Assembly: GCA_030429545.1 (NCBI GenBank)
Contig: JAUIFF010000001.1
Location: 211,599-275,598 of the forward strand
Source: Polyangia bacterium
Lineage (GTDB): Bacteria; Myxococcota_A; Polyangia; Nannocystales; Nannocystaceae
Reading direction: 5' to 3'
Length of the DNA: 64,000 nt
The notes under the pieces were generated by a model, which worked only from the letters and a program-made list of their open reading frames with translations, did not search any database and was not told the origin of the DNA. Numbering within the stretch: position 1 is the first letter of the stretch; each line of letters starts with the position of its first letter. Shown here in pieces: positions 1 through 54,886 of this stretch. A program made the position numbers and the translations under genes.

Positions 1-966
1 TGCACCAAACTCGTCGACCAACAGGCCGAGGTATGTGTGAAGCTCGTCGACAAGCCCGTGGTCGACCAATAGTGAAAACAGCACATGGCTGACGGGTGTG
101 ATGTAGACGACAAATCGCGAAGTTGGGTGCGAGGCGTGGAGGTGATGGAGCGCGCGCACGTTTCGCGGATCGAGTTGGTAGTTGCCATAGGCTTCGCGGT
201 AATAGCCCTGGTGTTTGAACTCTTCGGGGAAAACGGCGGGGCCGATGGTTTGTGCCGGGTAGACACGTTGTTCGAGGCATACGTCGTGTAGTTTTCGTAC
301 TCGAACTCGCCGCTTTGTTTGCCGGCGTTGGCGTTTTTCGCGTTTTTTTGCCTGTTTTTCGGAGGGGTAGAGCGAAGCTTTGACCTGGTCCCAACGAAAG
401 TGCTTGCGGGTTTTTGGGTCCTGCCAAAACGCGAGGGTTTCGCGGGTCTGGTCGACCGATAGCGCATCGTAGAGGCCGAGTTGGTAGGTTGGGTTTTTTG
501 CCTTGTCGATGTAGTAACTCGGAGGATTGGGGACGCTCACCCGATGCGTACTCGACCCGTAAAAGTCGAGGGCGACCGCGATGGTTTGGGGTTCGCGGCC
601 GCAGGCCTCGACGAAGTAGTCGACATAGGCGGGAAATTCCACCGGTGCCATGTCGTCGCAGGCGAGATTTAAAAATCGGTTGTCTCCAACATGGATGTCG
701 GCCAGCGCCTTGGTGCGACTACTGCCTAGAAGCACCGCGTTGGCGGTACACAGCGCGGGCTCATCGCGCAGGGCGTCGACCATGATTTGGCGACAGTCGC
801 GTTGGGCTTGCTCGCGTGGGAACAGATCAGGTTGTACCTGCACATGAAAATTGAAGGTAGCGATGACCGCAGCCAACCCTAGGCTGGCGACGATCAGGGT
901 GCCGACAAACAGGGCCGCCCGCCACCGCGGTGGCTCGGGTGCAGGGGTGTTGGGGGGGTCGGTCAC
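1..966 (-). CDS. Hypothetical membrane-anchored protein, partial (runs off the left edge). Possible DltD-like/SGNH-type partner of the adjacent MBOAT acyltransferase.
   Basis: Minus-strand frame is stop-free from ~966 to position 1; I translated it manually and it is not in the ORF track because no stop lies in the window. N-terminal hydrophobic anchor AALFVGTLIVASLGLAAVIATF, a lysine/arginine-rich linker, then a globular part. The partner call rests only on position downstream of the MBOAT gene. Start codon uncertain because the 5' end lies inside a tandem repeat. Confidence 0.35.
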   Translation of the reverse strand, partial: MTDPPNTPAPEPPRWRAALFVGTLIVASLGLAAVIATFNFHVQVQPDLFPREQAQRDCRQIMVDALRDEPALCTANAVLLGSSRTKALADIHVGDNRFLNLACDDMAPVEFPAYVDYFVEACGREPQTIAVALDFYGSSTHRVSVPNPPSYYIDKAKNPTYQLGLYDALSVDQTRETLAFWQDPKTRKHFRWDQVKASLYPSEKQAKKREKRQRRQTKRRVRVRKLHDVCLEQRVYPAQTIGPAVFPEEFKHQGYYREAYGNYQLDPRNVRALHHLHASHPTSRFVVYITPVSHVLFSLLVDHGLVDELHTYLGLLVDEFGA

Positions 967-1335
967 GGGCGGACAGTCTCCTGTCGATAGGGGAGCAGGG
1001 TGCCGACAAACAGGGGTGTCGGTCACGGGCGGACAGTCTCCTGTCGATAGGGGAGCGGGGTGCCGAGAAATAGCCCGGGTGCGGGGGTGTTGGGAGTGTC
1101 GGTCACGGGCGGACAGTCTCCTGTCGATAGGGGAGCAGGGTGCCGACAAACAGGGCCGCCCGCCACCGCGGTGGCTCGGGTGCGGGGGTGTTGTGGGTGT
1201 CGGTCACGGGCGGACAGTCTCCTGTCGATAGGGGAGCGGGGTGCCGAGAAACAGGGCCCGCAACCGCGGTGGCTCGGGTGCGGGGGTGTTGGGGTCGGTC
1301 ACGGGCGGACAGTCTCCTGTCGATAGGGGAGCAGA
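955..1335. repeat. Tandem direct repeat, 5 copies of a ~40-nt core (cggtcacgggcggacagtctcctgtcgataggggagc) with variable 60-100 nt spacing
   Basis: Core copies begin near 961, 1021, 1101, 1201 and 1291. The repeat overlaps the 5' end of the partial minus-strand CDS and, in that frame, encodes repeated ...TPAPEPPRWRAALFVGT... peptides. Confidence 0.8.
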
Positions 1336-1485: not shown

Positions 1486-2913
1486 CTAGAATTGAAAGTA
1501 GATGAACTCGCTGACACGGTTGAGGTGCAACAGTGCAAACGCGGCTGCGACGGCAAAGATGAGGCCAAAAGCGATCGGGTGGCGCAGGCCAGGGCCGTGC
1601 CCCGATGGGCCAATGAGTTTGTCGGTCATGGTTTGACTGTTGGGGAGCAGCAGCACGCACAGGAGGCCGGCAGCGAGCCAGCCCCACATCCAGGTGTCTT
1701 CGATCAGGGGAAAGCCGCCTAGGTTGCCGACCAGGGCCAGCGCACCGTGGAGCGTGGTAGCGCGAAAGAAGATCCAGCCGATGATCACAGCAAACAGGGT
1801 GATGGCGATCCCAAGCGGGTCGAACAGCGGGTGCGGCGTGTCGGCCGAGGTCCCCGTCGTGCGTTGCCACAGGGCCCGCGCGGCGTGGTTGATAATCAGG
1901 TAGCTGCCGTGCAGTCCACCCCAAATCAAAAAATTCCAGCCTGCGCCGTGCCACATCCCGCCGAGCAGCATCGTCAGCATGAGGTTGACGTAGCGGCGTG
2001 TGGGGCCGCGCCGGTTCCCTCCTAGTGGGATATACAAGTAGTCGCGTAAAAACCGGCTCAGGGTCATGTGCCAGCGCCGCCAAAACTCGATGATATTTTT
2101 GGACTTGTAGGGGGAGTTGAAGTTGAGCGGTAGCTCGATGCCAAACACCCGGCCGAGACCTATCGCCATGTCGGCGTAGCCTGAAAAGTCGAAGTACAAT
2201 TGAAGTGTATAGGCAAGAGAACCCTGCCACGCCAGCGAGGGTGAGAGCTCTCCTCCCGCGTCTGCCAGGGCAAACGGAGCGTCGACCCAGGTGGCGAGGT
2301 TGTCGGCGATCACGACTTTTTTAAACAGGCCGATCACGATCATCATCGCCCCGCCGGCGAGTTGGGTTGTACGCAGCCGTCGGTTGGCACGAAACTGCGG
2401 GATCACGTCCGCGTGGTGAACAATCGGGCCGGCGATCAGCTGGGGAAAAAACGTGACGAACACACAGTAGGAAAGGAAGTCACGCTCGCCTCCTTTGCCA
2501 CGGTGGGCGTCGACGAGGTAGGCGATTTGCTGAAAGGTAAAAAACGAAATCGCCAGGGGTAGGACGATGGTGTCGACCTGCCACGAGCTGCCGGTGATTG
2601 CCTCGAGGTTGGCCAGCAAAAAGTGGGTGTACTTGTAGTAGACGAGCAGCGCGAGGTTGAGGCCGATGCCGAGTTTGAGCAGGCCTGGGCGCTTGGTCGG
2701 CGCGGCGAGGAGGTTGCCGAGCGTGTAGTTGACCAGTACCGAGCCAAGTAGCAGCGGCAGGTAGCTCAGGTCCCACCACGCGTAAAACCAAAACGAGGCG
2801 AGCGCCAGCAGTCCCAGCGCGAGTTTGCGGGCTCCCCATGCGTTGAGCAGTGTGTAGGCCAGCCACGTAAGCGGCAGGAACACAAACAAGAACTCGAACG
2901 AGTTAAACAGCAT
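1486..2913 (-). CDS. MBOAT-family membrane-bound O-acyltransferase (AlgI/DltB-like)
   Basis: 475-aa polytopic membrane protein with the typical MBOAT N-terminus (MLFNSFEFLFVFLP...) and the conserved His-containing block WRRWHMTLSRFLRDYLYIPLGGNRRG. Confidence 0.9.
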   Translation of the reverse strand: MLFNSFEFLFVFLPLTWLAYTLLNAWGARKLALGLLALASFWFYAWWDLSYLPLLLGSVLVNYTLGNLLAAPTKRPGLLKLGIGLNLALLVYYKYTHFLLANLEAITGSSWQVDTIVLPLAISFFTFQQIAYLVDAHRGKGGERDFLSYCVFVTFFPQLIAGPIVHHADVIPQFRANRRLRTTQLAGGAMMIVIGLFKKVVIADNLATWVDAPFALADAGGELSPSLAWQGSLAYTLQLYFDFSGYADMAIGLGRVFGIELPLNFNSPYKSKNIIEFWRRWHMTLSRFLRDYLYIPLGGNRRGPTRRYVNLMLTMLLGGMWHGAGWNFLIWGGLHGSYLIINHAARALWQRTTGTSADTPHPLFDPLGIAITLFAVIIGWIFFRATTLHGALALVGNLGGFPLIEDTWMWGWLAAGLLCVLLLPNSQTMTDKLIGPSGHGPGLRHPIAFGLIFAVAAAFALLHLNRVSEFIYFQF

Positions 2914-3477: not shown

Positions 3478-4803
3478 CTAAAGGTTTTCTTGGGGCCGGT
3501 CATACCGAAACGGGTAATGCTCGGGAAACGCTCCGCTGCCGTAGTCAATCGGACCGGTCGCTCGCAGGTTGGGGCGCAGGAGCAGCCTCCTGAGAATCTC
3601 CGGCACGAGAACCCTCGCAATTTGATCGCCGAGACAACGGTGATGACCGTGACCGAGGTGTAGGGCATGTACATGGTAGGGGCGGTCGGCTCGAAACGTC
3701 TCGGGCTCATCAACCAGATGGTGGTCGAACATCGCCGACTGGGTCAGTGCCAATACCGTGGAACCTGCGGGGATAAAAGTCTCGTGGGCTGTGCCCCGGG
3801 CCAACACGTGATCGGTTGCACTTACACGAAATAGATATGGCAAGAAGGGATGGAAACGTAGGGCTTCCCACACATAGCCGCAAAATTCGTCAAAGTCGCC
3901 CCGGTTGGCGACCTCTCGCGCGTTTGCGAAAATTGCCGGTCGTGCCAGCAGTTGTTCGAGGGCATGGGCTGTGACCTTGGCGGAGGTCTCGACGGTGCCG
4001 ATCAGTAGGCCTCCGATGTTTGTCACCAACGCCAGGATGTCAAACCCGAGCTCCGGAGGAAGTTGCATCTTCAACATTCGCGCGACGATGTCATCTGCTG
4101 TCGGGTCGACCTTGAGCTCGGCGCCGCGGCGTTTCAGGAGTGCTCCGAGGGCCGCCCCGAGTTCTTGGTAGGCCACGCGGGAAGCCTGAAACACGGCCTC
4201 GGCATCCGCAAGTTGGTCGAACGGTTGATTAAAAAACGCATCGTACTGGATTGCCCGAGACCATCGCGCCATCGCTTCGACGCCGATCCCTGTGAGGCCA
4301 AAGTAGTCCTCGACCATTCGCAGTGGCACCCAACGGGTGAGCTTGGGTACGAGGTCGATCACACCGTCAGCGGCGTCGAGGGCTTGGTCCGTCAGCGTGC
4401 CGACGAGCGTGCGAAGTTTTGGCAAGTCGTCGCGGTTGAGAACCGCATGCATGATGCCCTTATCGCGCTGGTTGAGCGTGGTCTCGTCAAACGCGAGCAT
4501 GTGGTTGTCCATCTTCGCTTTATTGAGGTCGACGGTGAAAACCGCGGGTAAGCTCAGTACCTCATGGACGTCGTTGCTGTTCGCCACAAGGACGGCCTGG
4601 TCGGTGGTGAGTATCGGCATATGTCGCCGAAGCTCCGCAAAGAACTGCCGTGGCTTGTCTCGCATCAATCGACGAACGAGCGCAAAACGTGAGTCGGGCT
4701 CGGCCTTTGCGACCTGTCGCAGTAGTCTGCGACCCCGACGACCCCGACGACCCATATGACGACGAAAACGACCACTACATTTCATAGTGGAAGTATCCTG
4801 CAA
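3478..4803 (-). CDS. Cytochrome P450 monooxygenase
   Basis: Heme-binding signature LGHGHHRCLG (FxxGxHxCxG), the ETLR-like EALRFHP block and a PxRW-like segment. The true start is probably an internal Met, since the first 40 aa of the ORF are Arg-rich. Confidence 0.85.
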   Translation of the reverse strand: MQDTSTMKCSGRFRRHMGRRGRRGRRLLRQVAKAEPDSRFALVRRLMRDKPRQFFAELRRHMPILTTDQAVLVANSNDVHEVLSLPAVFTVDLNKAKMDNHMLAFDETTLNQRDKGIMHAVLNRDDLPKLRTLVGTLTDQALDAADGVIDLVPKLTRWVPLRMVEDYFGLTGIGVEAMARWSRAIQYDAFFNQPFDQLADAEAVFQASRVAYQELGAALGALLKRRGAELKVDPTADDIVARMLKMQLPPELGFDILALVTNIGGLLIGTVETSAKVTAHALEQLLARPAIFANAREVANRGDFDEFCGYVWEALRFHPFLPYLFRVSATDHVLARGTAHETFIPAGSTVLALTQSAMFDHHLVDEPETFRADRPYHVHALHLGHGHHRCLGDQIARVLVPEILRRLLLRPNLRATGPIDYGSGAFPEHYPFRYDRPQENL

Positions 4804-4939
4804 TTGAAAATACCTTGCAACTACAACGAAATCGAGCCCGCCTGCTCGCAGGTGAACACTTCGGCTCGCGGGCTGCCACTATTTCGCGCGTGCGGTTTGG
4901 CTGGTGCCTGCTGTGAGTGCCGTGTGGACGCGACCTCGA

Positions 4940-6229
4940 CTATGTCTTGGGCAAAGTGTCGTGCAAGACCTCTAAGATCACGCCGGTGCCGGCCGTGCCC
5001 GACCACTGGGGTGGCCCGCCGGTTTCCCGGGCAAAGCCGTCGCAGCCGTCGCGAAAACCGAGAGTCATGCCTTCTTGTAGATACACGTGACGTTTGAGTA
5101 CGACCTCGGCGATGACCTCGGTTCCCGGCATGGCACCGAGGCTGTCGGGGATCATCGTCACGGTGCCGACGGCTGTTGCTGAACCGAGAAACACGAGGAC
5201 CTCGTCGCCGCTAAACATGGGGGTGTGGCGACCACCTTGGTAGGGGTGGAGCAGGTGCAGGCGGGCGCGGAAGCGGTGGCGCAGTTGCCTGGCGTTTTCG
5301 GTGATCAACAGGTCGCCCTTGCGCAGGCGGTTGCGGTTGAAACGTTTGGACAGGCCCTCGAGGACTAGCCCAATGTGTTCGCCAGCACCGGCATCTTCGT
5401 GGCGGACATGAAATGACTCGATGCTGCGGACGGCGACAGGCGCTTCAAACCGCGAGCCGAGCAGGGTCAGGTGTTGCCCACGACTGACAGTTCCGTGGCG
5501 CACGATCCCCTCCACAAGGACTTTTTTGGGCTCACCGAGTGGGTGACGGCGGTGCAGGATATCGAGGGCGACAACTGTCGGCGGGGTCGCGTCGTAGGGG
5601 GTGAGCTGGAGTTCGCGGTCGAGCACATCGATGAGGGTGTTGACCGGTAGTTGCCAGTTGCGATCGCCAGTTAGAGCCTGGCCCGCAGCTCCGCGCAGGA
5701 CGACCATGTCATCGCCGTCGGCCCCGACATCGCTGACGACCTCGCGCAGTTCGGTTTCGATGACATCGAGCAGCTCCGGGTCTTCGGCTATGTCGCACTT
5801 GTTGATGAAGGTGACAAACTGGCGGACACCGGCAGCAGCAGCCAGGCGAATCAGCTCAAATGTTTGGGCACGCGGGCCTACGCTCGCGTCGACGACAATG
5901 ATCGCGCTGTCGACCGAGGCCAGCAAAGTTGCACTCGAGCGGACCCGCTTGCGCCGTCCTGAAACATCAAAGTGGGCGACCCGACGGCTCAGGGTTTCGT
6001 AGCTGAGTTTGGTGGGGAGGACCGTACCCGAGGGATAGGCTTGGTAGTGGGCGACAAATCCGGGGTCGTCGCGGCGGTCGAGTTGTTCGACGGTTTTGGC
6101 CTCGGCGTGGCAGCCCGGCCGTTGGTCAAGCGCCGCTAGCAGGGCGGCAACCAGCGTGGTTTTGCCGTCGCCGTGATGGCCGATGGTGGCGACCGAAAGC
6201 AGCGGTTTTTCACGGGAAGTAGTCGACAT
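4940..6229 (-). CDS. EF-Tu-like translational-GTPase paralog, divergent (catalytic His replaced by Arg)
   Basis: Collinear with EF-Tu over domains 1-3: P-loop GHHGDGKTTL (EF-Tu GHVDHGKTTL), NKCD G4 box, GGRHTPMF (EF-Tu GGRHTPFF). The DCPGH box reads DVSGR and the SALK G5 box reads GAAG. Confidence 0.75.
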   Translation of the reverse strand: MSTTSREKPLLSVATIGHHGDGKTTLVAALLAALDQRPGCHAEAKTVEQLDRRDDPGFVAHYQAYPSGTVLPTKLSYETLSRRVAHFDVSGRRKRVRSSATLLASVDSAIIVVDASVGPRAQTFELIRLAAAAGVRQFVTFINKCDIAEDPELLDVIETELREVVSDVGADGDDMVVLRGAAGQALTGDRNWQLPVNTLIDVLDRELQLTPYDATPPTVVALDILHRRHPLGEPKKVLVEGIVRHGTVSRGQHLTLLGSRFEAPVAVRSIESFHVRHEDAGAGEHIGLVLEGLSKRFNRNRLRKGDLLITENARQLRHRFRARLHLLHPYQGGRHTPMFSGDEVLVFLGSATAVGTVTMIPDSLGAMPGTEVIAEVVLKRHVYLQEGMTLGFRDGCDGFARETGGPPQWSGTAGTGVILEVLHDTLPKT

Positions 6230-6300
6230 CGGCGGGTCCGACTATCGCATGCAATCCCGGTCGTGGGCATGGAAAATCGCCAGGCAATCAGGTGGTCGAT

Positions 6301-6317
6301 GTGCATTGTAAATGCAC
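6301..6317. promoter_or_regulatory. Inverted repeat GTGCATT-gta-AATGCAC upstream of the EF-Tu-like gene; candidate operator
   Basis: Perfect 7-3-7 palindrome in the 250-bp intergenic region ahead of the minus-strand EF-Tu-like/P450 gene pair. Confidence 0.25.
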
Positions 6318-6477
6318 CTGATGTCGGGCGAAAACCGCCCGCGCTGGGCGGGTACTGCCTACGGGCGGGAAAAGTGTGTATGCATCATTTTTGCGAGGTC
6401 ACGGCTTCCTCGCGGTTGTGACGACACAAAAATACCCGTGGTGCACGTGCCCGCGGGTATTGTTGAGCGGGTGGGGG

Positions 6478-7146
6478 TTAGGCAGCCGAGCCAGCCCCAA
6501 TCACCGGCAGATCGTCGGCCACAATGACCTTACACTCAGTCTTTTGCCGGACTTCGTCCACGGTTACGCCCGGGGCGATTTCGGCGAGGAGCAGGCCTTC
6601 GGGGGTGATCCTAAAGTAGCCGAGGTCGGTGGCGACCTCGTGGACGACGGCCTTACCAGTCAGCGGCAGGGTGCACTGCTCGAGTAACTTGGCACCACCT
6701 TTGCGAGTGCAGTGCTCCATTGCCACAATCACGCGTTTGGCCCCGGCGACGAGGTCCATGGCACCGCCCATACCTTTGACCTTTTTGCCGGGGATCATCC
6801 AGTTGGCGAGGTCGCCGTGTTGGCTAACCTGCATGGCCCCGAGGACACATAGATCGAGGTGGCCGCCGCGGATCATGGCAAAGCTGTCGTGCGAGCCAAA
6901 AAACGAGGCTCCCGGCACGGCGGTCACGGTTTGTTTGCCGGCGTTGATAAGGTCGGCGTCGACATCGGCATCGGTGGGGAAGGGGCCAATGCCCAGCAGC
7001 CCGTTTTCGCTGTGGAGAATGACTTCCATGCCTGCGGGGATGTGGTTGGCGACCAGCGTTGGCATGCCGATCCCCAAGTTGACGTAGTAGCCGTCACGCA
7101 GCTCCCGGGCCACGCGCTGGACGATTTGTTCGCGGGTCAGTCCCAT
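6478..7146 (-). CDS. scoB: 3-oxoacid CoA-transferase subunit B
   Basis: 222 aa; conserved blocks [20 protein letters not shown] and GAMQVS, characteristic of the CoA-transferase family I B subunit. Confidence 0.9.
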
Positions 7147-7170
7147 CTCTGTACTCCTTCTTGGCGCGGG

Positions 7171-7866
7171 TTAGGCGTCGCGGGTGGTCCGAAATTCGAT
7201 TGGTTTGTCGTAGTGCTCGCCGCGGATGATCCGCTGGACAAAGATCCCCGAGGTGTGGACGTGGTCGGGGTCGAGCTCGCCGGCTGGCACGAGTTCTTCG
7301 ACCTCGGCGATCGTCACCTTGGCGGCGGTCGCCATCACCTGGTTGAAGTTGTTGGCCGTGCGGCGAAAGATCAGGTTGCCGTGGGTGTCGCCCTTCCAGG
7401 CCTTGATGAAGGCGAAGTCGGCGGGCAGGGGTTTTTCGAGCACGTAAAACCGGCCGTCGATCTCGCGGACTTCCTTGCCCTCGGCCACCGGGGTGCCGTA
7501 GCCGGTCGGGGTGTAAAACCCACCGATACCCGCGCCTGCGGCCCGGATCCGTTCGGCCAGGGTGCCCTGGGGCACGAGCGTTACTTTTAGTTCGCCCGAC
7601 AAAAACAGCCGCTCAAAGGTCTTGTTTTCGCCGACATACGACGAGGTCATGCTACGGACCTGGCCGTTGTCGAGAAGCAGGCCTAGGCCCACACCGTCGA
7701 TACCGCAGTTGTTGGAGATGATGTCGAGGTCTTTGGTGCCCTTGCGGTGGAGCGCCTTGATCAGGTTTTCCGGGTTGCCGCACAGGCCAAAGCCCCCGCT
7801 CATGAGCGTGACACCATCGTTGATGTCGGAGATGGCCGCATCGGCGCTGGGGTAGGTTTTATCCAT
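7171..7866 (-). CDS. scoA: 3-oxoacid CoA-transferase subunit A
   Basis: 231 aa; DGVTLMSGGFGLCGNPENLI A-subunit N-terminus. Lies immediately upstream of subunit B on the same strand. Confidence 0.9.
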   Translation of the reverse strand: MDKTYPSADAAISDINDGVTLMSGGFGLCGNPENLIKALHRKGTKDLDIISNNCGIDGVGLGLLLDNGQVRSMTSSYVGENKTFERLFLSGELKVTLVPQGTLAERIRAAGAGIGGFYTPTGYGTPVAEGKEVREIDGRFYVLEKPLPADFAFIKAWKGDTHGNLIFRRTANNFNQVMATAAKVTIAEVEELVPAGELDPDHVHTSGIFVQRIIRGEHYDKPIEFRTTRDA

Positions 7867-8035
7867 GGCGCCCGGATTGTGACCGGTGGTTGCGAGCGAT
7901 TCAAGCGGCGTCTGCCGGCGACATGGTCGAACCGGCGAAATCCCCCAGCTCGGCCAAGGGAAGGCTCTTGGCGTTATCTGAGAGCGGCGCGCGAGTTGCC
8001 CGTCCCGGTTGCCAGCAATCCGTTAGGATGCGCCG

Positions 8036-8749
8036 GTGACCGTGGCCAAGCAACCGATCGTCATCTCGCCCTCGATCCTCAGTGCCAACTTCTCGCGCCT
8101 CGGCGAAGAAGTGATAGCCCTCGACCGCGGTGGCGCCGAATGGATCCATGTCGATGTCATGGACGGGCACTTTGTCCCAAATCTGACCATCGGTCCGCTT
8201 GTGGTTTCGGCCCTGCGACCGTTGACCAAGCGCGTGCTCGACTGTCACCTGATGATCGAAAAGCCCGAGCGCTATGTCGAGGCGTTTGCCAAGGCGGGTG
8301 CCGATGTGATCACCGTACATGTTGAGGCTTGCCCCCACTTGCATCGCAATCTCCAGCAGATTCGCAACTTGCCACACCACGCGGGGGGGCGCGTACTCGC
8401 CGGGGTGAGTCTCAATCCACACACACCGGTGGCTGCGATCGAAGCCGTGCTCGACCTGTGCGACCTCGTGCTGGTGATGAGTGTGAATCCCGGGTTCGGT
8501 GGTCAAAGTTTCATTGAGTCAGTTCGCCCCAAGATTCGCGAATTGCGACAACAGATCGATGCGCGCGGATTGGCCACGCGCATTGAAGTTGATGGTGGCG
8601 TCAATACCAAGACGATTGCAGCGGTGGCCTCCGACGGCGCGGACACGATTGTGGCTGGCAGTGGGATTTTGAAACATCCCGTGCATGGCAAGAATTATGC
8701 GGGCGCAATTGCGGAACTTCGCGACATGGCGGAGCGGGCACGTCAATAA
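8036..8749 (+). CDS. rpe: Ribulose-phosphate 3-epimerase
   Basis: 237 aa; ISPSILSANF N-terminus, VDVMDGHFVPNLT and VMSVNPGFGGQ motifs. Confidence 0.9.
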   Translation: MTVAKQPIVISPSILSANFSRLGEEVIALDRGGAEWIHVDVMDGHFVPNLTIGPLVVSALRPLTKRVLDCHLMIEKPERYVEAFAKAGADVITVHVEACPHLHRNLQQIRNLPHHAGGRVLAGVSLNPHTPVAAIEAVLDLCDLVLVMSVNPGFGGQSFIESVRPKIRELRQQIDARGLATRIEVDGGVNTKTIAAVASDGADTIVAGSGILKHPVHGKNYAGAIAELRDMAERARQ

Positions 8750-8870
8750 ACATCGTTGTAGTAGTTCGCCGCAGATGTGCGTGTTGGTTGCATAGGCAAG
8801 ATCGAGCCTACAATCAACGCGGCAGGTTTGTGTTGTTGAAACCGCGGGATTTGCGTAGCGTATAGATCAC

Positions 8871-9521
8871 GTGTTGATCGCTTTAGCAGACGGTGCGTTT
8901 TGGCCGTGGTGGCTCGGTGGCCTCGCCTTGGCGAGTGTCGCCATCGGTTTTTTGTTGTTGCTGCGTCGCCAGTTTGGCGTGTCGTCGGGATACACGCGGC
9001 TGGTCTCGGTGCTCGAGAACCCCGAGGAGGAAAAGGCGAGCAAGGCATTTGCCTCGATGGACATGGGGGACCTCGAAGCACTGTTGTTGGCCGCGACTGC
9101 CGAGGCCAGTGGGCGCAGTGTCGATGAGCTTCAGGCCCAGGACGATGCCTCGGATCCGGGGATGTTTGTCGAAGCGCCGCGGGTCGTCGAGCGCGTGTCT
9201 GCATCGGCCTATGCCATGCTGTTTGGCGGTATCTTGATCGGGGCGGCGATTGCTGCGGTCACCCATGGCGAGTTTGCGATTCACACCGGCATGGGCGCTG
9301 ACTACGAAGCACTGTTTGGCGACGGATGGGTTTCGTACCTGCCACTGATCATCGGCGGTATTTGTGTCGGGGCCGGAACCCGGATGGGCGGCGGCTGTAC
9401 CAGCGGACATGGCCTCAGCGGCTGCTCGCGGTTCCAAGTTCCGAGCCTTGTCAATACAACGTTATTTTTTGGGACCGGCGTGGTTGTCTCGCTGTTACTC
9501 GATTGGATGGTAGGGGCATGA
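8871..9521 (+). CDS. YeeE/YedE family sulfur-transport-like membrane protein, N-terminal half
   Basis: Membrane protein with the GGCTSGHG motif typical of YeeE/YedE (DUF395). Confidence 0.75.
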   Translation: MLIALADGAFWPWWLGGLALASVAIGFLLLLRRQFGVSSGYTRLVSVLENPEEEKASKAFASMDMGDLEALLLAATAEASGRSVDELQAQDDASDPGMFVEAPRVVERVSASAYAMLFGGILIGAAIAAVTHGEFAIHTGMGADYEALFGDGWVSYLPLIIGGICVGAGTRMGGGCTSGHGLSGCSRFQVPSLVNTTLFFGTGVVVSLLLDWMVGA

Positions 9522-9940
9522 ACGGGAAGGGCACACACCTCAAGTTCGCCGGGCTCGGGATCCTCCTCGGTTACTCGCTGTCACGGATCGGTTTTGCCGA
9601 CTACGGTGAAGTCCACCGGATGTTTACGTTCGCGGACACGCGCCTGTTTTTCACTTTCTGCGCGGCGGTTGTCGCCTCGGCACTCGGTTTCTTCGTGTTT
9701 CGCCGGATGACCGAGGGGTGGGGCAAAAAGCGGTTTCATCCGGGGATTATTCCCGGCGGCGCCATTTTTGGACTCGGGTGGGCGCTGTCGGGCGCATGCC
9801 CGGCAATCGTGTTGGTACAACTAGGCGAAGGCAAGATACTCGCGCTCACCACACTGCTTGCCATCATGCTCGGCAACTGGTTATACGGTCGGATACACCG
9901 GCGATTTTTCCGATGGGAGACAGGTTCCTGTGGGATCTGA
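9518..9940 (+). CDS. YeeE/YedE family membrane protein, second half
   Basis: Membrane protein with a GWALSGACP motif. Its ATG overlaps the preceding stop (ATGA), consistent with a split two-gene YeeE/YedE arrangement. Confidence 0.7.
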   Translation: MNGKGTHLKFAGLGILLGYSLSRIGFADYGEVHRMFTFADTRLFFTFCAAVVASALGFFVFRRMTEGWGKKRFHPGIIPGGAIFGLGWALSGACPAIVLVQLGEGKILALTTLLAIMLGNWLYGRIHRRFFRWETGSCGI

Positions 9941-10216
9941 GCTCCACTTTTTACGAAGGGCCAAGCCCGTGGCGAAGTCAAATACCTGTCCCAACAAGGA
10001 AAGCTGCCAGTTGTTTCCCCTCTTTCGCCTGCGCTCGAGCCTGCAGTACTGGATGGAGGTCTACTGCGACGCGGATTACCGCCGGTGCGTGCGTTACCAA
10101 CGGGCCTGCGAAGGCAGCATGCCGCCGCCGAATATCTTGCCCAACGGCAAGGATATCCACAAGCTGACGCGTTAGGCGACCTTGCTGCCCCAGTCGGTGC
10201 TGGGGCGTCGACCTAC

Positions 10217-11251
10217 TCACTCGCCAATCGTAATTGTCCGACGAATCTCATCGGTCTTAAACCCCAGCGCCATTGGCCGCGTAACCCCCGGCAATACGGC
10301 GACATCGTAGAGCTCCTTCACCAGCCCCTCAAACCGCAACCAGTGGACCACATCCCCCGTCCGCAGGTCGACGATTTGCAGGCCGCACCGCGCCGTAGCT
10401 TGCTTTTCGGCCAGGCGCTCACCGAGTTCTAAGTCGCCAAAGGTCCGATCGCGGCGCAGCCCGGACACGCCGATCAATGCATAGTCACCGACAAACGTAA
10501 GCCCGCGGGCAAAGCCCGGCAAAAACGTCACGCGCTCGAAGTTGCCGTTGTTGTCGATAAAACCCAAGTGCCCAGAACCGGCTTCTAGCAGCCACAGGCG
10601 GCCGTTGTGATAGCGCGGGGAGTGGGGCATCGACAGCCCCGCGGCCAGTACGTCGCCGCTTGGGACCGAAAGTACGACCCCTCCTCCGCGCCGAAAATCT
10701 CGCCAGCCGTCTGCCACATCGCTGCGGCTCACGGCTGTCACGGCGGCTGGCTTGCCGTCTTTCATGGCCATGCCGTTGAGGTGGCAGCGATCCTCGGCCG
10801 CGAGCCGGCTGATAAACGGAGGTTGCCACACCGGGACAAAGCTGTGGGTTTCGCTGGTGGTCGCCAGGCAGCTAAAAAGTGTATTGACAAATATCAGGCG
10901 GCCGTCGCTGTCGAGGCCGATGTCATGGACATCGAGGTCGCCGGTGATGTAGCTCAGCCGCGGCACGTATAGGCGGTCGTAACCCTGGTGCACACGACCG
11001 CTGGGCAGCGCATTTTCAAAGCGCCAAAGTTGGTAAAGCGAGCTCATCCACAGGGTTTGGTCGGTCGCACACAGGCCCATGCAGCGGTTAAACGTGCGCT
11101 CAAATACCGACAACCGGCCGTCGGGTTGCAGCCCGAGCAGGAACAACTTGCCTGCCTGATAGGTCGTACATGCGAGGCTGAGGTTGTGCTCAGCCATCCA
11201 CGAGGGGAGTTGGCGCGAACCGGTGATCGTCAGCGGGGCAGCGGCGGACAC
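10217..11251 (-). CDS. Conserved hypothetical beta-propeller-like protein (TIGR03032/DUF4915-like, tentative)
   Basis: 344 aa with repeated DG/GRL blades (DSDGRLIFVNT, HNGRLWLLEAGSGHLGFIDNNGN). The family assignment is from memory. Confidence 0.45.
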   Translation of the reverse strand: MSAAAPLTITGSRQLPSWMAEHNLSLACTTYQAGKLFLLGLQPDGRLSVFERTFNRCMGLCATDQTLWMSSLYQLWRFENALPSGRVHQGYDRLYVPRLSYITGDLDVHDIGLDSDGRLIFVNTLFSCLATTSETHSFVPVWQPPFISRLAAEDRCHLNGMAMKDGKPAAVTAVSRSDVADGWRDFRRGGGVVLSVPSGDVLAAGLSMPHSPRYHNGRLWLLEAGSGHLGFIDNNGNFERVTFLPGFARGLTFVGDYALIGVSGLRRDRTFGDLELGERLAEKQATARCGLQIVDLRTGDVVHWLRFEGLVKELYDVAVLPGVTRPMALGFKTDEIRRTITIGE

Positions 11252-11310
11252 CGGGGGAGGGTAACGTGAAAATTCGGGCTTGTGCGAATGGATGGGCTAC
11301 CGTAGGTCCG

Positions 11311-12246
11311 ATGCCCCGCGCACAACGCCCGAGTTTGACAGCAGTCAAGGTCGCTCGCGTCCTTGTCCATCTCGGTCACCGCCGAGCCTACGCCCCGCTG
11401 TTACCCGCAGGCGCTGCTGAGCGGACCCAGCAGTTGTTGTTGCAAGCCGGACTGCTGAAACCGTGGATGGTCCGGTGGATGCAACGGCCCGCCTACAACC
11501 GGGCGCTCGAGCAGATCGGCGACTGGTTTAGCCCCGGTCAGGCCGTGCGGATCGGGCTGCGCAAGCGGTTGATCGACGATGAAGTCCGGGACGCTCTCAA
11601 CCGGGGCGCGACTCAGGTATTGGTGGTTGGGGCCGGGTTTGACACGCTGTGTTCCCGGCTTGCTGGCGAATATCCGGCTTGCCGGTTTGTCGAGATTGAC
11701 CACCCGGCAACCCATGGCGTGAAGCGAAACGCGATGCAAGCACTCGGATGGGTCCGCCCAAACCTCGAGTTACTCGGTGTCGACCTTTCACAGGTCGCGC
11801 TGTCCGAAGCCCTGTTGCGCCACATCCCTGCGTGGGACCGGAGTCGACAAACTGTGGTCGTCGCCGAGGGATTATTGATGTACTTACATAGACATCATGT
11901 CGCGCGTTTTTTTGGGGAGGTTCACACACTCACCCGGGCCGGCTCGCTCGTCGTGTTTTCCTATCTCAAAAGTGATGCGAACGGCCGGCCCTACACCGGG
12001 CGTGTTGGCTGGTTGACGCGTGCGTCACTGGCCTTGATGGGTGAGGGTTTACACTGGTCCGTCGCCTCGACCGAGGCATTGGCAACATTTGTGGAAACAT
12101 CCGGGTTTGCCCTCGAGTCCGAACCGGCCCGGTTTGACCTGGGCGTACGCTACCTCGTACCAGCTGGGATCGAGCAGGCTGGCGCGGCACCGTTTGAGTT
12201 TTTGGCGGTTGCCCGGCACAGGACCGAGTCATCACGGCCGATCTAG
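11311..12246 (+). CDS. Class I SAM-dependent methyltransferase (leucine carboxyl methyltransferase / TIGR00027-like)
   Basis: SAM-binding VVVGAGFDT block and a family-typical N-terminus (SLTAVKVARV...). Start placed at an internal ATG because the longer ORF would nearly abut the divergent upstream gene. Confidence 0.75.
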   Translation: MPRAQRPSLTAVKVARVLVHLGHRRAYAPLLPAGAAERTQQLLLQAGLLKPWMVRWMQRPAYNRALEQIGDWFSPGQAVRIGLRKRLIDDEVRDALNRGATQVLVVGAGFDTLCSRLAGEYPACRFVEIDHPATHGVKRNAMQALGWVRPNLELLGVDLSQVALSEALLRHIPAWDRSRQTVVVAEGLLMYLHRHHVARFFGEVHTLTRAGSLVVFSYLKSDANGRPYTGRVGWLTRASLALMGEGLHWSVASTEALATFVETSGFALESEPARFDLGVRYLVPAGIEQAGAAPFEFLAVARHRTESSRPI

Positions 12247-13007
12247 CGCCGGACCCGAATACACTTTGTCCAGCCATTGGGGCCCCGGCTGCAGGCTGAA
12301 TCGACACAGCAAATATCGACGCATACGTTTCCATTGCATGTACATCCACTGTCGAGCCTCGCGCCGTCGGTACAGGCGTTGCTCGGTTTTTTGGCCTCGG
12401 TGGTCACCGGTTCAGCGATCGGATCGATTTGCAGCAACTCGTAGCGCTTGCCCGGCTCTTTTTTGAATGGGTCGACAAGTGCACCCGAGCGCCGTAGCCC
12501 GGCGCTGCGCAGTTTGAGTGTGTAGGTCACCCCCTCGGTCCAGCGAAACCCGCGGGTTTTCGTGGGTGGCATCTCTGGGCAACTCACGCCCACGTAGAGT
12601 TCTGAGTCGTCCAAATGCCCGGTGATGACCTCCTCGACCTCAAACTTCATGACCAGCTTGATGTGGAGGACACCGCAGTGGGGAACCGAGTGCCCCCGGT
12701 CGACAAGGCGCGCTCGCACGCTAAAGGTTGGGCCGGTGGTTTGTTTGGGTCCGAACAGGTCCCCGGCCAGCTGCGTCGTTTCGCTTGCATCTACATCAGT
12801 TGCATCGCCAACTGTCGTTGTCGGGCTCGAGTCGGATAACCCGGCTGTGGTTGATGAGGTGGGCTCGTCCCCAGTATCAGACGATGGCGCGGGTTCGGTT
12901 ATGTTGCCAGCCGGCGGGATATCGGGAGCTGGGTTCGACGATGGCGGGGTAGCAGGGGAGCAGGCGAGGGCGCCCACCACAAATCCGGCGATAAGCTTTG
13001 GGGACAT
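12243..13007 (-). CDS. Hypothetical lipoprotein with Ser/Thr/Pro-rich linker and Cys-rich C-terminus
   Basis: Start placed at MSPKLIAGFVVGALACSP (lipobox ALAC). The longer ORF overlaps the neighbouring gene. C-terminal CTCNGNVCVDICCVDSAC. Confidence 0.55.
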   Translation of the reverse strand: MSPKLIAGFVVGALACSPATPPSSNPAPDIPPAGNITEPAPSSDTGDEPTSSTTAGLSDSSPTTTVGDATDVDASETTQLAGDLFGPKQTTGPTFSVRARLVDRGHSVPHCGVLHIKLVMKFEVEEVITGHLDDSELYVGVSCPEMPPTKTRGFRWTEGVTYTLKLRSAGLRRSGALVDPFKKEPGKRYELLQIDPIAEPVTTEAKKPSNACTDGARLDSGCTCNGNVCVDICCVDSACSRGPNGWTKCIRVRR

Positions 13008-13087
13008 GCTGTCGAGCAGGCCTCGCCTCACGATGTTGAGGGTACACCCTCCCAACCGCTGATTGCGTGGGGTCGCTTGAGGCAAAG

Positions 13088-13942
13088 TTATCGACGCCAC
13101 GGCCGTGGCAGCAGCCGCGGTGTCGACTGCTGGTAGTCGGCGTACTCGGGGTACTTGCCCAGCGAGATCGATTCGGTGAATGCTGTCGACCCCTGAAACA
13201 GCGCGGTGAGGAGCACCGGGCCGAGCAGCGACAGGTTTTGCCAACCCGCCCCGGCGGCGACCGAGAACAGAAAAAAGCTCCACCAAATCGAAATCTCGCA
13301 GACAAAGTTGGGATGGCGAACAATGCCGAACAGCCCGGTTGTGCAAAACTGCGGACCGCTTTCGCCACGTTGTTTTCGCGCCGCCTTTTGCCGATGAAAC
13401 CGCCACTGTTGTTCGTCGGCGACCGTCTCGCCCACCAAGAACAACACAAACAAGACCGTGGCGATGGTGTCCAGTGGGCCCCACGGCGTGGCCTGCCCGA
13501 GCCACGCGTAGTAGGCCGGCGCCGCGATCAAAAACAGCAGCACATTTTGAAACGCGGCGATGAACACCAGGTTAAACAGGCGAAATTGCCAGGGCGACAT
13601 GCGTTGGCGCAGCACAGCCCAGCGATAATCCTCGCCACCGCTGGCGTAGCCACCCTTGCGGGCAAAGTTGTAGGTCAGGCGACCGCCCCAAAGCGCAGCT
13701 AGGAGCGCCATCGTCAGCAGTCGGGGATCGGTAAAACCTGTCTGGGCGGCAAACCAGGTGACATAGGCCGGTGGTAGCAACGACCACAGGCGATCGACCC
13801 ACGAGTGCTCGCCGGTAACCTCGGCGACGATCCAACAAAAGGCTGCGGCGACACAGACCCCGGCGATGGCAACTTCGAGCGGAGACACGGCGGATCTATA
13901 AACCATTTTCCGCGGGTGCGTCAGCGCTCCAGGCCCGGTCAT
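13088..13942 (-). CDS. DUF1295 family membrane protein (steroid 5-alpha-reductase/ICMT-like fold)
   Basis: Polytopic membrane protein with the GLFGIVRHPNF motif characteristic of DUF1295. Start ambiguous; an alternative Met lies at 13906. Confidence 0.7.
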   Translation of the reverse strand: MTGPGALTHPRKMVYRSAVSPLEVAIAGVCVAAAFCWIVAEVTGEHSWVDRLWSLLPPAYVTWFAAQTGFTDPRLLTMALLAALWGGRLTYNFARKGGYASGGEDYRWAVLRQRMSPWQFRLFNLVFIAAFQNVLLFLIAAPAYYAWLGQATPWGPLDTIATVLFVLFLVGETVADEQQWRFHRQKAARKQRGESGPQFCTTGLFGIVRHPNFVCEISIWWSFFLFSVAAGAGWQNLSLLGPVLLTALFQGSTAFTESISLGKYPEYADYQQSTPRLLPRPWRR

Positions 13943-53329: not shown

Positions 53330-54886
53330 ATGTCTCAGCCCCGTACCCGCCAAGAGCTCTACGAACGGATCCGCGAATCCTCCAAAGATGAAGTCATCTT
53401 GGAGGAAATGATCCGCCTCGGGTTTTGGCCGTCCGGTGGCACCCTGCCCAACGACCCGGCCGACGAGATTCGCCGCCGCGGACAGCTGCAAAAAAAGCTC
53501 AACGACCTGCGGGCCCGTGTTCAGCGGATGTACAACGAGCGTCAGCTACTGGCCGATGCTCGCAAAAAACGCATGGCCGATGCCCGGCGGCGGCGGGTAG
53601 AGACCAAACAAAGGCGCGAGCAGGTACGGGCCGAGAAAGCCGCGGCTTGGGCCGAGCGCAAGAAACGTGAGCTGCTGTATTTGGGCGAAGAGGTTTCGGG
53701 TGCCCTGCAACATCGGTTGGCCAATCGCGACAAGCTCGCCGCCAACAAACTGCCGGTGTTTACCAGCCCCGAGGCACTCGCCAGCGCGATGCGTATACAA
53801 CTAAGCGAGCTGCGATTTTTAGCCTACGATCGCCAAGTTGCCAGGAGCCATCACTACCGCCGCTTTGAAGTGCCCAAAAAGACAGGTGGTGTCCGGCGGA
53901 TTTCAGCCCCGATGCCGCGGCTGAAGGCTGCGCAAACCTGGATTTTAAACCACATCCTCAAGCAAGTCCCGGTCCACGAAGCTGCCCACGGTTTTCGTCA
54001 CCACCGGAGTATCGCCTCCAATGCCCGACCACACTTGGGTGCGGACATTGTCATCAACATGGACTTGGAGGACTTCTTTCCCACGGTCACGTACCCCCGG
54101 GTAAAGGGCCTGTTCGTCTCACTCGGCTACAGCGAGTCGGTTGCGACCGTCCTGACACTGCTGTGCAGTGAGCCCGACGTCGAAGAGGTTGAACTCGACG
54201 GCAACCGCTACTTTGTCGCAGTCGGTCCTCGCCGTCTGCCCCAAGGGTCACCTGCAAGTCCCGCCCTCACCAACGTATTGTGTCGCAACCTCGACAAGCG
54301 ACTGGCCGGGTTGGCCGAGTCGATGGGCTTTACCTACACCCGCTACGCCGACGACCTGACGTTTTCTGGCGGTCGTGATGTGTCGCGGACCAGCTTGGTC
54401 GGGCGCCTGATTCGCGCAGTCGAAGACATCGTCGACCACGAGGGGTTCAAGGTGCATCCCAAAAAGACACGAGTGATGCGGCGGACAAAGAAGCTCGAGG
54501 TCACCGGTGTGACCGTCAACGACAAGCTCGGTGTCGATCGCAAAACCCTGCGTCGGTTTCGGGCCACGCTCTACCAAATCGAAAAAGACGGGCCCCAGGG
54601 CAAGCACTGGAATCACAGCGCCAATGTCTTGAGCTCGATGAACGGCTACGCAAACTTTGTGGCGATGATCGACCCCGAAAAGGGCCGAGAACTTCAGCGA
54701 CGCACACGAGCGTTGTTGGTCAAATATGGGCAAAAGCCAGTGGCTCCCCCCCCGCAGGCCGCAGCGCCCAAGGCGAGCCAGCCTCCTCCGCCCCCGCCCG
54801 CGGCGGCACCCAGCCCGTCAACGAGTCAGCCCGAGCCTGAGCCCGAGCCCAAGAAGAAAAAGAAGAAGCGCTGGAAGCTTTGGTAG
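53330..54886 (+). CDS. Reverse transcriptase, retron-type
   Basis: RT motifs IVINMDLEDFFPTV, LPQGSPASPALTN and YTRYADDLTF (YADD). Retron-associated NAxxH (SNARPH) and VTG (LEVTGVTVN) motifs. Unusual ~170-aa charged coiled-coil N-terminal extension and a Pro/Lys-rich C-terminus. Confidence 0.8.
   Translation: MSQPRTRQELYERIRESSKDEVILEEMIRLGFWPSGGTLPNDPADEIRRRGQLQKKLNDLRARVQRMYNERQLLADARKKRMADARRRRVETKQRREQVRAEKAAAWAERKKRELLYLGEEVSGALQHRLANRDKLAANKLPVFTSPEALASAMRIQLSELRFLAYDRQVARSHHYRRFEVPKKTGGVRRISAPMPRLKAAQTWILNHILKQVPVHEAAHGFRHHRSIASNARPHLGADIVINMDLEDFFPTVTYPRVKGLFVSLGYSESVATVLTLLCSEPDVEEVELDGNRYFVAVGPRRLPQGSPASPALTNVLCRNLDKRLAGLAESMGFTYTRYADDLTFSGGRDVSRTSLVGRLIRAVEDIVDHEGFKVHPKKTRVMRRTKKLEVTGVTVNDKLGVDRKTLRRFRATLYQIEKDGPQGKHWNHSANVLSSMNGYANFVAMIDPEKGRELQRRTRALLVKYGQKPVAPPPQAAAPKASQPPPPPPAAAPSPSTSQPEPEPEPKKKKKKRWKLW

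Follow-up and report, generated by a model that had tools for sequence, protein, structure and literature searches.

Elongation factor Tu (EF-Tu) is among the most conserved and slowest-evolving proteins. Among the related translational GTPases (trGTPases), yeast Ski7 is said to be a paralogue with a degenerate GTPase centre, and the nematode mitochondrial factors EF-Tu1 and EF-Tu2 reportedly carry additions to domain 3 that adapt them to structurally unusual tRNAs. These mitochondrial EF-Tus remain ribosome-dependent elongation factors with the catalytic His, and eIF2-gamma and CysN both keep this switch-II His as well. Here we describe a gene from a stretch of 64,000 nucleotides (henceforth the window) of the genome of a Polyangia bacterium of the Nannocystaceae (GenBank assembly GCA_030429545.1, contig JAUIFF010000001.1, positions 211,599 to 275,598). 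The gene (4940..6229, minus strand) encodes an EF-Tu-like protein in which that His is an Arg, and the reading that we favour, with modest confidence, is that of a functional, strongly diverged paralogue from a myxobacterial subfamily, an EF-Tu-derived GTP switch uncoupled from ribosomal GTPase activation. The actinomycete paralogue actEF-Tu (Streptomyces EF-Tu3) is far closer to EF-Tu and has the catalytic His.

What actEF-Tu shares with the present gene is the standing of a lineage-restricted tuf paralogue. It has been described as a condition-specific, antibiotic-resistant elongation factor of actinomycetes, and in a 2015 survey of trGTPases it was the only distinct EF-Tu-like subfamily in bacteria (PMC4342817); a survey of 2007 had listed nine bacterial trGTPase subfamilies, with nothing resembling the myxobacterial family. 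Closer in character is the archaeal SelB-like protein aSelBL, a paralogue of a tRNA-carrying trGTPase that has kept the fold, lost the canonical catalytic features and been proposed to act outside the hydrolysing cycle (PMC3037878). The parents of aSelBL and Ski7 are different ones (SelB or eRF3/Hbs1), they belong to another domain of life and their homology to our protein is at the superfamily level only; in addition, the myxobacterial family keeps its nucleotide-binding motifs well and has lost only the activation residues. With eIF2-gamma the protein has in common the lack of Asp21 (PMC5084732), and by analogy a ribosome-independent role like that of CysN is plausible, although there is no cysD-like or eIF5-like partner near the gene and the scores of the corresponding hidden Markov models (HMMs) are far below cutoff. 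A literature search on myxobacterial EF-Tu paralogues and on His-less EF-Tu found no description of the family, and the EF-Tu domains mentioned in conflict systems have a different architecture (PMC7159879). Judged from its sequence, the gene belongs to a second, very different and lineage-restricted EF-Tu-like subfamily.

A diverged EF-Tu paralogue outside the translation operon

An earlier reading of the window (the original prediction) had placed a full-length EF-Tu paralogue at 4940-6229, distinct from the housekeeping tuf gene. The open reading frame (ORF) exists, lies on the minus strand and runs from an ATG start through 429 codons to a stop. Its full length was borne out by end-to-end alignment and by the three-domain fold: residues 5-395 align with EF-Tu residues 7-380 (phmmer against PDB, E=2.3e-54, ~29% identity), and the protein divides into a G domain (residues ~1-210), a domain 2 (~215-310) and a domain 3 (~315-429), with Pfam matching GTP_EFTU at E=2e-23 and domains 2 and 3 below their cutoffs. 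Against trGTPase profiles the EF-Tu models rank first, all scores being far below the respective cutoffs: 194.5 bits for TIGR00485 (EF-Tu, NCBIfam; cutoff 522.4, E ~1e-57) and 196 bits for PRK12736 (EF-Tu; cutoff 452), as against 69.5 bits for TIGR00475 (SelB; cutoff 242.25), 66.5 bits for the NCBIfam EF-1alpha model and 53.7 bits for TIGR02034 (CysN/NodQ; cutoff 336.1). The E values of the EF-Tu matches put the similarity far above chance, and on these scores (196 vs 70, 67 and 54 bits) the ancestry is clearly bacterial EF-Tu and not SelB, EF-1alpha or CysN. The protein also stops after domain 3, at 429 residues, with none of the C-terminal winged-helix domains of SelB, and its gene is flanked by CoA-transferase and cytochrome P450 genes, with no adjacent cysD.

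That this is an extra, diverged EF-Tu paralogue and not tuf itself is supported by two features. The score is under half of the TIGR00485 cutoff (194.5 vs 522.4 bits), and the gene is no part of a translation operon: it stands by itself, with a terminator-like hairpin on either side. The 64-kb window holds no second EF-Tu-like gene and no tuf; a peptide-pattern scan of GTDB species genomes returned only canonical EF-Tu genes at ~30% identity, the source genome not being among those recovered.

AlphaFold2, run on the family alignment, gave a model that was confident over the whole protein, with a predicted local distance difference test (pLDDT) of 90.5 and a predicted template-modelling score (pTM) of 0.90. 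Its best Foldseek matches were GTP-form EF-Tu structures (1EXM, 1EFT and 1TTT, template-modelling scores 0.85-0.91), so that the predicted fold is the closed, GTP-type EF-Tu shape. The isoelectric point (pI) of the protein is 6.7, compared to 5.3 for EF-Tu.

Activation residues replaced, nucleotide-binding motifs retained

Functional sites were mapped from E. coli EF-Tu through the family alignment onto this protein and 27 relatives (28 members in all), and its motifs were checked residue by residue in HMMER and MAFFT alignments; all sites given below are on the minus strand. The P-loop (G1) reads GHHGDGKT where E. coli has GHVDHGKT (residues 17-24, 6158..6181), which keeps GxxxxGKT and puts His19 in the place of E. 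coli Val20 and Gly20 in that of Asp21. The guanine-specificity motif NKCD (G4, residues 143-146, 5792..5803) is intact and GGRHTP in domain 3 (residues 332-337, 5219..5236) is conserved, all three motifs having been read correctly in the original prediction. In switch I, said there to be altered around its threonine, the surroundings have indeed changed (Ile60 is a Gly, and seven residues are inserted upstream), but the Thr itself, E. coli T61 and a Mg2+ ligand in the GTP state, is retained in both alignments as T69 (6023..6025). Likewise, SALK of the G5 region is substituted as proposed, but not by GAAG: the true register is one residue off, aligning AAGQ (residues 181-184, 5678..5689) to S173-A-L-K176, within RGAAGQAL as against RGSALKAL of EF-Tu. 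Position 173 is Ala in 21 of the 28 members, and this change of Ser to Ala is thus the family norm and says little.

In G3/switch II, DCPGH has become DVSGR (residues 88-92, 5954..5968). The motif retains its Asp and Gly, but in the place of the catalytic His84 of E. coli it has Arg92 (codon CGG, 5954-5956), followed by Arg93 at the equivalent of position 85. A misalignment concealing a retained His was considered and the residue-level alignments leave no such His. Neither is this Arg a sequencing error, since two independent metagenome assemblies yield the very same protein and the motif is DCSGR in the three closest orthologues. Among the 28 members, G18, H19, G23, K24, D80, G83 and C137 (E. 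coli numbering) are invariant, T25 is Thr or Ser, T61 is Thr in 23 and D138 is kept in 26. The activation sites behave differently. Position 84 is R in 14 members, H in three, K, L and A in two each, with others in the remainder; the Asp21 position is occupied by G, R, S, E or A, and V20 and I60 are also unconserved. Position 85, on the other hand, is Arg in 23 of the 28, giving a DxPGxR signature whose final Arg is R93 in our protein.

The signal recognition particle-type (SIMIBI) GTPases Ffh and FtsY have DTAGR as their G3, and the Arg after DxxG acts in their dimer-activated hydrolysis. DVSGR and DCSGR also place an Arg right after DxxG, a resemblance that offers a lead only: homology is limited to the P-loop GTPase fold, and in the myxobacterial family position 84 is Arg in just half of the members, position 85 being the conserved one. 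His118, the partner of His84 in accepting the wedge of EF-Ts, is replaced too, by Leu in the closest subclade including this protein.

The consequences of such changes are known from mutants of E. coli EF-Tu. His84 is conserved in all trGTPases, and the His84Ala, His84Gln and His84Arg mutants (the last being exactly the change found here) lose ribosome-stimulated GTPase with the intrinsic rate kept (PMC5084732). Asp21Ala lowers the rate ~1000-fold; Asp21 is missing only in eIF2-gamma, the sole protein-activated trGTPase, and an arginine finger is impeded unless this position of the P-loop is a Gly (PMC5084732). As aligned, our protein naturally combines the tested His84Arg change with the loss of Asp21, i.e. 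both experimentally defined ribosome-activation residues are replaced and the nucleotide-binding residues are kept.

The tRNA-binding surface has been remodelled as well. In the aminoacyl pocket H66, E215, D216, T228 and N273 are K, D, I, E and H here, all five being replaced, and the T-stem specificity residues Q329, T338 and E378 are L, V and D, two of the three counting as changed; pocket and T-stem residues have been described as highly conserved among bacteria (PMC3239215). The contacts to the RNA backbone are partly kept across the 28 members (K89 as R/K in 24, R318 in 26, H319 in 18, E259 in 21, E378 as D in 26). Set against bacterial EF-Tu (TIGR00485) as a whole, the protein shares the three-domain architecture, the closed GTP-type fold, G1, DxxG, NKCD, the switch-I Thr, GGRHTP and helix D, and departs from it in its low identity (~29%), the replaced His84, Asp21, Val20, Ile60, His118 and pocket, the 15- and 7-residue insertions and its fast evolution.

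A domain-3 insertion shared by a myxobacterial family

The larger insertion, of ~15 residues (C396-S410, CDGFARETGGPPQWS, 5000..5044, minus strand), is specific to the family and sits in a loop of domain 3 directly after Asp394, the counterpart of the T-stem contact Glu378, and the equivalent of G379. It forms part of a signature, RDGxDG-x(8-30)-W-G/S-G-T, found here at residues 393-412 (RDGCDGFARETGGPPQWSGT), in which D394, G395, G398, W409 and G411 are invariant or nearly so in two family alignments. The AlphaFold2 model predicts it with a pLDDT of 84-92 and a short helix at 400-403. The domain-3 additions of nematode EF-Tu1 and EF-Tu2 are a precedent for reading such a loop as a change in tRNA recognition; they are C-terminal extensions, whereas the myxobacterial one is a loop insertion.

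A word-indexed protein search recovered only four clusters (67-100% identity, labelled as metagenome-assembled genomes (MAGs) of Nannocystaceae) and, when given the family alignment, a single further member (P0064). An exhaustive HMMER search of 1.84 billion representatives gave instead a graded series at 27-41% identity with coverage to residue ~420, insertion included, and the RDGxDG...WGGT signature recurs in ~35 clusters (50% identity). In a neighbour-joining tree (without support values) of 86 divergent EF-Tu-like sequences, those bearing the insertion form one clade of 36, apart from canonical EF-Tu. All members with a named source are from myxobacteria (Nannocystaceae, Myxococcales, Polyangiales or 'Deltaproteobacteria' MAGs), and one comes from a cultured organism, Nannocystis punicea (WP_269041178.1, complete genome CP114040.1). 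Among 5.8 billion proteins, no relative of the N. punicea copy exceeds 48% identity, which points to a patchy, fast-evolving family. The pI of its members ranges from 6.0 to 9.8, compared to 5.0-5.3 for canonical EF-Tu. The two earliest-branching members in the tree keep His84, which hints that the insertion predates the loss of this residue, neighbour-joining topology being weak evidence on such a point.

Outside the family, six divergent metagenomic EF-Tu-like sequences (P0037, P0045, P0042, P0053, P0070 and P0072) have neither His84 nor the domain-3 insertion, the G3 motifs in these lineages being DCPGLP, DCPGLA, DCPGAP, DCAGSR and DCPGNL. The catalytic His thus seems, from these alignments, to have been lost more than once among EF-Tu paralogues.

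Among four close orthologues all ORFs are intact and the ratio of nonsynonymous to synonymous substitution rates (dN/dS) is 0.18-0.20, measured at dS above 1 (0.57 for the closest pair), which marks the gene as one under purifying selection and no pseudogene. It is this ratio, the intact ORFs and the ~35 clusters sharing the insertion that argue for a functional gene. Its pace is another matter: P0010 and P0020 are 38% identical while the short-chain dehydrogenase/reductase (SDR)-like genes adjacent to them are 63% identical, and by this comparison the EF-Tu-like gene diverges much faster than its neighbours.

A putative GTP switch outside the elongation cycle

From the motifs, guanine-nucleotide binding and a GTP-dependent switch are probably retained, and ribosome-triggered hydrolysis, EF-Ts-type exchange and canonical aminoacyl-tRNA recognition are probably lost. 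The original prediction had envisaged a protein that may bind GTP with altered or absent ribosome-stimulated GTPase, which agrees with intact nucleotide motifs next to replaced His84, Asp21 and Val20/Ile60; its suggestion of aminoacyl-tRNA as a possible ligand is weakened by the changes at all five pocket and two of the three T-stem residues. The protein would then be a GTP-binding switch operating outside the ribosomal elongation cycle, in which GTP hydrolysis would proceed at a low intrinsic rate or be set off by some non-ribosomal factor. Sterically, the Ras-like Gly at position 21 would leave room for an arginine finger, as a comparison with eIF2-gamma suggests. What has been gained is a conserved Arg85, a more basic surface and the 15-residue loop on the side of domain 3 where the T stem binds. 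Much more speculatively, the GTP form might carry a ligand in the cleft that receives the acceptor/T arm in EF-Tu; the favoured candidate would be RNA, tRNA or tRNA-like and recognised unlike canonical aminoacyl-tRNA, the alternative being a protein partner.

Several points weigh against a switch of this kind. GTP binding is read from motifs, and three members of the family (P0021, P0038 and P0049) keep His84. AlphaFold2 tends to give the closed form for EF-Tu-like sequences, so the closed shape of a predicted structure is not evidence of a GTP-locked state. The aminoacyl pocket positions vary within the family, which speaks against one esterified ligand common to all members, and no gene neighbour is shared by all loci that could anchor a pathway. 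Helix D is the docking helix for L7/L12 and EF-Ts; given that it is conserved along with GGRHTP, E259 and K89, binding of ribosome and tRNA may persist.

The same conserved elements (GGRHTP, E259, R/K at K89 and helix D) favour an explanation that we hold to be unlikely, though less so than the others: a specialised elongation factor, comparable to SelB or to nematode mitochondrial EF-Tu, that delivers one unusual (aminoacyl-)tRNA to the ribosome and whose loop fits an atypical T arm. The insertion lies exactly at the loop that contacts the T stem (T-stem residues after PMC3239215), and aSelBL offers a precedent, its degenerate GTPase domain being thought compatible with tRNA and ribosome binding (PMC3037878). 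Such a factor would nevertheless have to work without the residue present in all ribosome-activated trGTPases, when His84Arg abolishes ribosome stimulation (PMC5084732), and without Asp21 and the hydrophobic gate, which are lost too; a hydrolysis-deficient carrier would stall on the ribosome and not deliver. Nor does a pocket that varies inside the family suit one dedicated aminoacyl-tRNA, and the 64-kb window contains no tRNA gene or Rfam match.

If the protein is a switch off the elongation cycle, as we prefer, it would represent a natural experiment in which the EF-Tu scaffold has been re-used, comparable to aSelBL, Ski7 and CysN. Should tRNA binding persist, the family could expose a myxobacteria-specific tRNA-dependent process or translational control. 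It is open to direct study through its member in the cultured N. punicea, with a complete genome.

Gene neighbourhood at orthologous loci

Twelve independent loci were compared, with flanking ORFs matched all-against-all across eleven of them (L021 not among these). The sole neighbour recurring across deep branches, in six of the twelve contexts, is a zinc-ribbon SDR-like gene on the opposite strand (L012:7368-9929, L014:2650-4143, L016:4959-5535, L018:4163-4984, L019:14722-17025 and L021:11322-11429). It is convergent in L014, L016, L018 and L021, often with 3' ends overlapping by 11-29 nt, divergent in L012, and 3.4 kb off in L019; no homologue is present in the 64-kb window or in L001, L003, L004, L015 and L020. 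The encoded proteins are 39-67% identical, with a CxxC-x15-CxxC zinc ribbon and variable N-termini (leucine-rich repeats in L012). Where SDRs have YxxxK they read HPHTNMAK, in an atypical region whose alignment is ambiguous. Considering that the organisms are fairly closely related (as the 39-67% identity of the SDR proteins indicates), the recurrence may reflect a gene order kept by common descent and not a functional coupling. The gene was dropped as a guide to chemistry, only generic SDR models matching it and the YxxxK region being atypical.

A bolder version of the off-ribosome switch, to which we give little credence, would make use of this neighbour. The family would be a new class of EF-Tu-derived switch that captures tRNA or tRNA-like RNA off the ribosome and either hands it to a non-ribosomal partner, in most lineages the zinc-ribbon SDR-like protein, or withholds it, while an arginine finger that Gly21 allows, either Arg84/85 in cis or one supplied by the partner in trans, would set off hydrolysis. 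If this were true, it would lead to a tRNA-dependent redox or modification pathway, or to a GTP-gated brake on translation in myxobacterial development.

Other neighbours differ from locus to locus. In L001, the closest relative (P0002), the block containing a membrane-bound O-acyltransferase (MBOAT) gene is missing and a type VI secretion system (T6SS) cluster with VgrG, TssA, VipA/B, TagF and IcmF follows directly downstream on the opposite strand (4134-13844); a 323-residue protein encoded after VgrG has a homologue in L003 (5281-6273). A core protein of an extracellular contractile injection system (eCIS) is encoded nearby in L019. In N. punicea (L020:9183-10004, CP114040.1) a poly(ADP-ribose) glycohydrolase (PARG)-like macrodomain gene (PF10021) shares 4 nt with the beginning of the EF-Tu-like gene, an overlap that hints at translational coupling and is seen at no other compared locus. 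None of the T6SS, eCIS and PARG-like neighbours recurs, and for this reason the idea of a link to them was dropped.

Conflict-type genes of this sort can be cited in favour of a decoy or immunity factor, an EF-Tu look-alike that would sequester toxins, antibiotics or phage proteins directed at EF-Tu or dependent on it. Fast evolution relative to the neighbours would fit this idea, which we consider a slim possibility, as would the patchy distribution (e.g. the isolated N. punicea copy, with relatives at no more than 48% identity among the 5.8 billion proteins) and Thr382, which we take to be the target site of the Doc kinase and which is kept in 21 of the 28 members. It has to contend with neighbours that do not recur (VgrG of the T6SS in L001, the eCIS protein in L019, the macrodomain in N. 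punicea), with an overall dN/dS of 0.19 that gives no sign of diversifying selection, and with the fact that the surfaces needing mimicry (switch I and the pocket) are the least conserved. PADLOC-DB gave no defence-protein match, only a LeoA P-loop match at E=0.008.

Around the gene itself, the neighbours named next are on the minus strand. Upstream lie genes for scoA/scoB-like CoA-transferase subunits A (7171-7866) and B (6478-7146; together 6478..7866), an arrangement conserved in the closest subclade, and 248 nt separate the end of subunit B from the EF-Tu-like ATG. Directly after the stop of subunit B comes a terminator-like hairpin followed by UUUUUGUGU (6422..6469, minus strand; fold -21.2 kcal/mol, z = -2.4), and because of it the EF-Tu-like gene probably has its own transcript. 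A second, weak terminator-like hairpin, from a consensus scan only, lies between the EF-Tu-like stop and the P450 start (4833..4848, minus strand), the number of such weak sites being no higher than shuffling would lead one to expect. Downstream are the cytochrome P450 gene (3478..4803) and the gene for a DltB/AlgI-like MBOAT (1486..2913). The original prediction had placed the P450 137 bp downstream on the same strand. The strand is right; the gap measures 136 nt if the longest ORF is taken (TTG at 4803), or 154 nt from the ATG at 4785 used by gene callers, which gives a protein of 435 residues. This P450 has an intact heme-binding Cys motif (HHRCLG) and is divergent, its scores falling far short of the cutoffs for all named P450 subfamilies.

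The adjacency carries no functional weight, as the P450 is exclusive to the locus of this genome, between the EF-Tu-like and MBOAT genes, and is absent at the orthologous loci L001, L003 and L004. The CoA-transferase, the MBOAT and its partner, a protein matching no Pfam family, are common to the closest subclade only; the MBOAT gene directly follows the orthologue in L003 and L004 and is absent from L001 and from all eight distant contexts. This leaves hardly any room for the proposal that the protein is an accessory of a biosynthetic or cell-envelope cluster with P450 and MBOAT, e.g. bringing aminoacyl-tRNA to a tailoring or acyl-transfer enzyme. In its favour one could cite the common strand (with the P450 154 nt downstream), the MBOAT gene of L003 and L004, and a weak similarity of the P450 to those associated with cyclodipeptide synthases. 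That similarity amounts to 47.9 bits for a cutoff of 500, terminator-like hairpins stand on both sides of the gene, and no cyclodipeptide synthase, PEARL or tRNA-dependent enzyme of the Fem type turned up in the neighbourhood; with the P450 absent at orthologous loci, a functional link to it is excluded in practice. Excluded in practice, too, and the least probable reading of all, is a decaying, functionless relic of a tuf duplication: lost catalytic and pocket residues and a high evolutionary rate might suggest one, but ORFs are intact in all lineages, dN/dS is ~0.19 at dS above 1, conservation has arisen at new sites (R85 and the RDGxDG...WGGT loop) and the whole protein is confidently modelled.

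Other features of the window

Beyond the MBOAT gene, an ORF running off the left edge of the window (1-1203, minus strand) is homologous to the 502-residue protein without Pfam match that is encoded after the MBOAT in L003 (3503-5011) and in L004, and is probably the conserved MBOAT partner of unassigned family. Just downstream of the MBOAT gene there are tandem repeats (953-1334; periods 60 and 101 nt, 2.0-2.6 copies, 92-94% identical). Scans for tRNAs and Rfam families gave no matches in the 64-kb window. A retron-type reverse transcriptase of 518 residues is encoded at 53330-54886 (plus strand), scoring 219 bits against the retron St85 reverse transcriptase (cutoff 235) and 223 bits against the Ec67 family; no msr/msd RNA was found for it by Rfam at the gathering threshold. 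At 10217-12246, a gene for a TIGR03032/DUF4915 protein (481.7 bits) is divergent to a leucine carboxyl methyltransferase-like gene, both of them uncharacterised. The rest of the window resembles an ordinary myxobacterial chromosome, with Ser/Thr kinases carrying tetratricopeptide repeats and DUF4215 repeats besides the retron-type reverse transcriptase.

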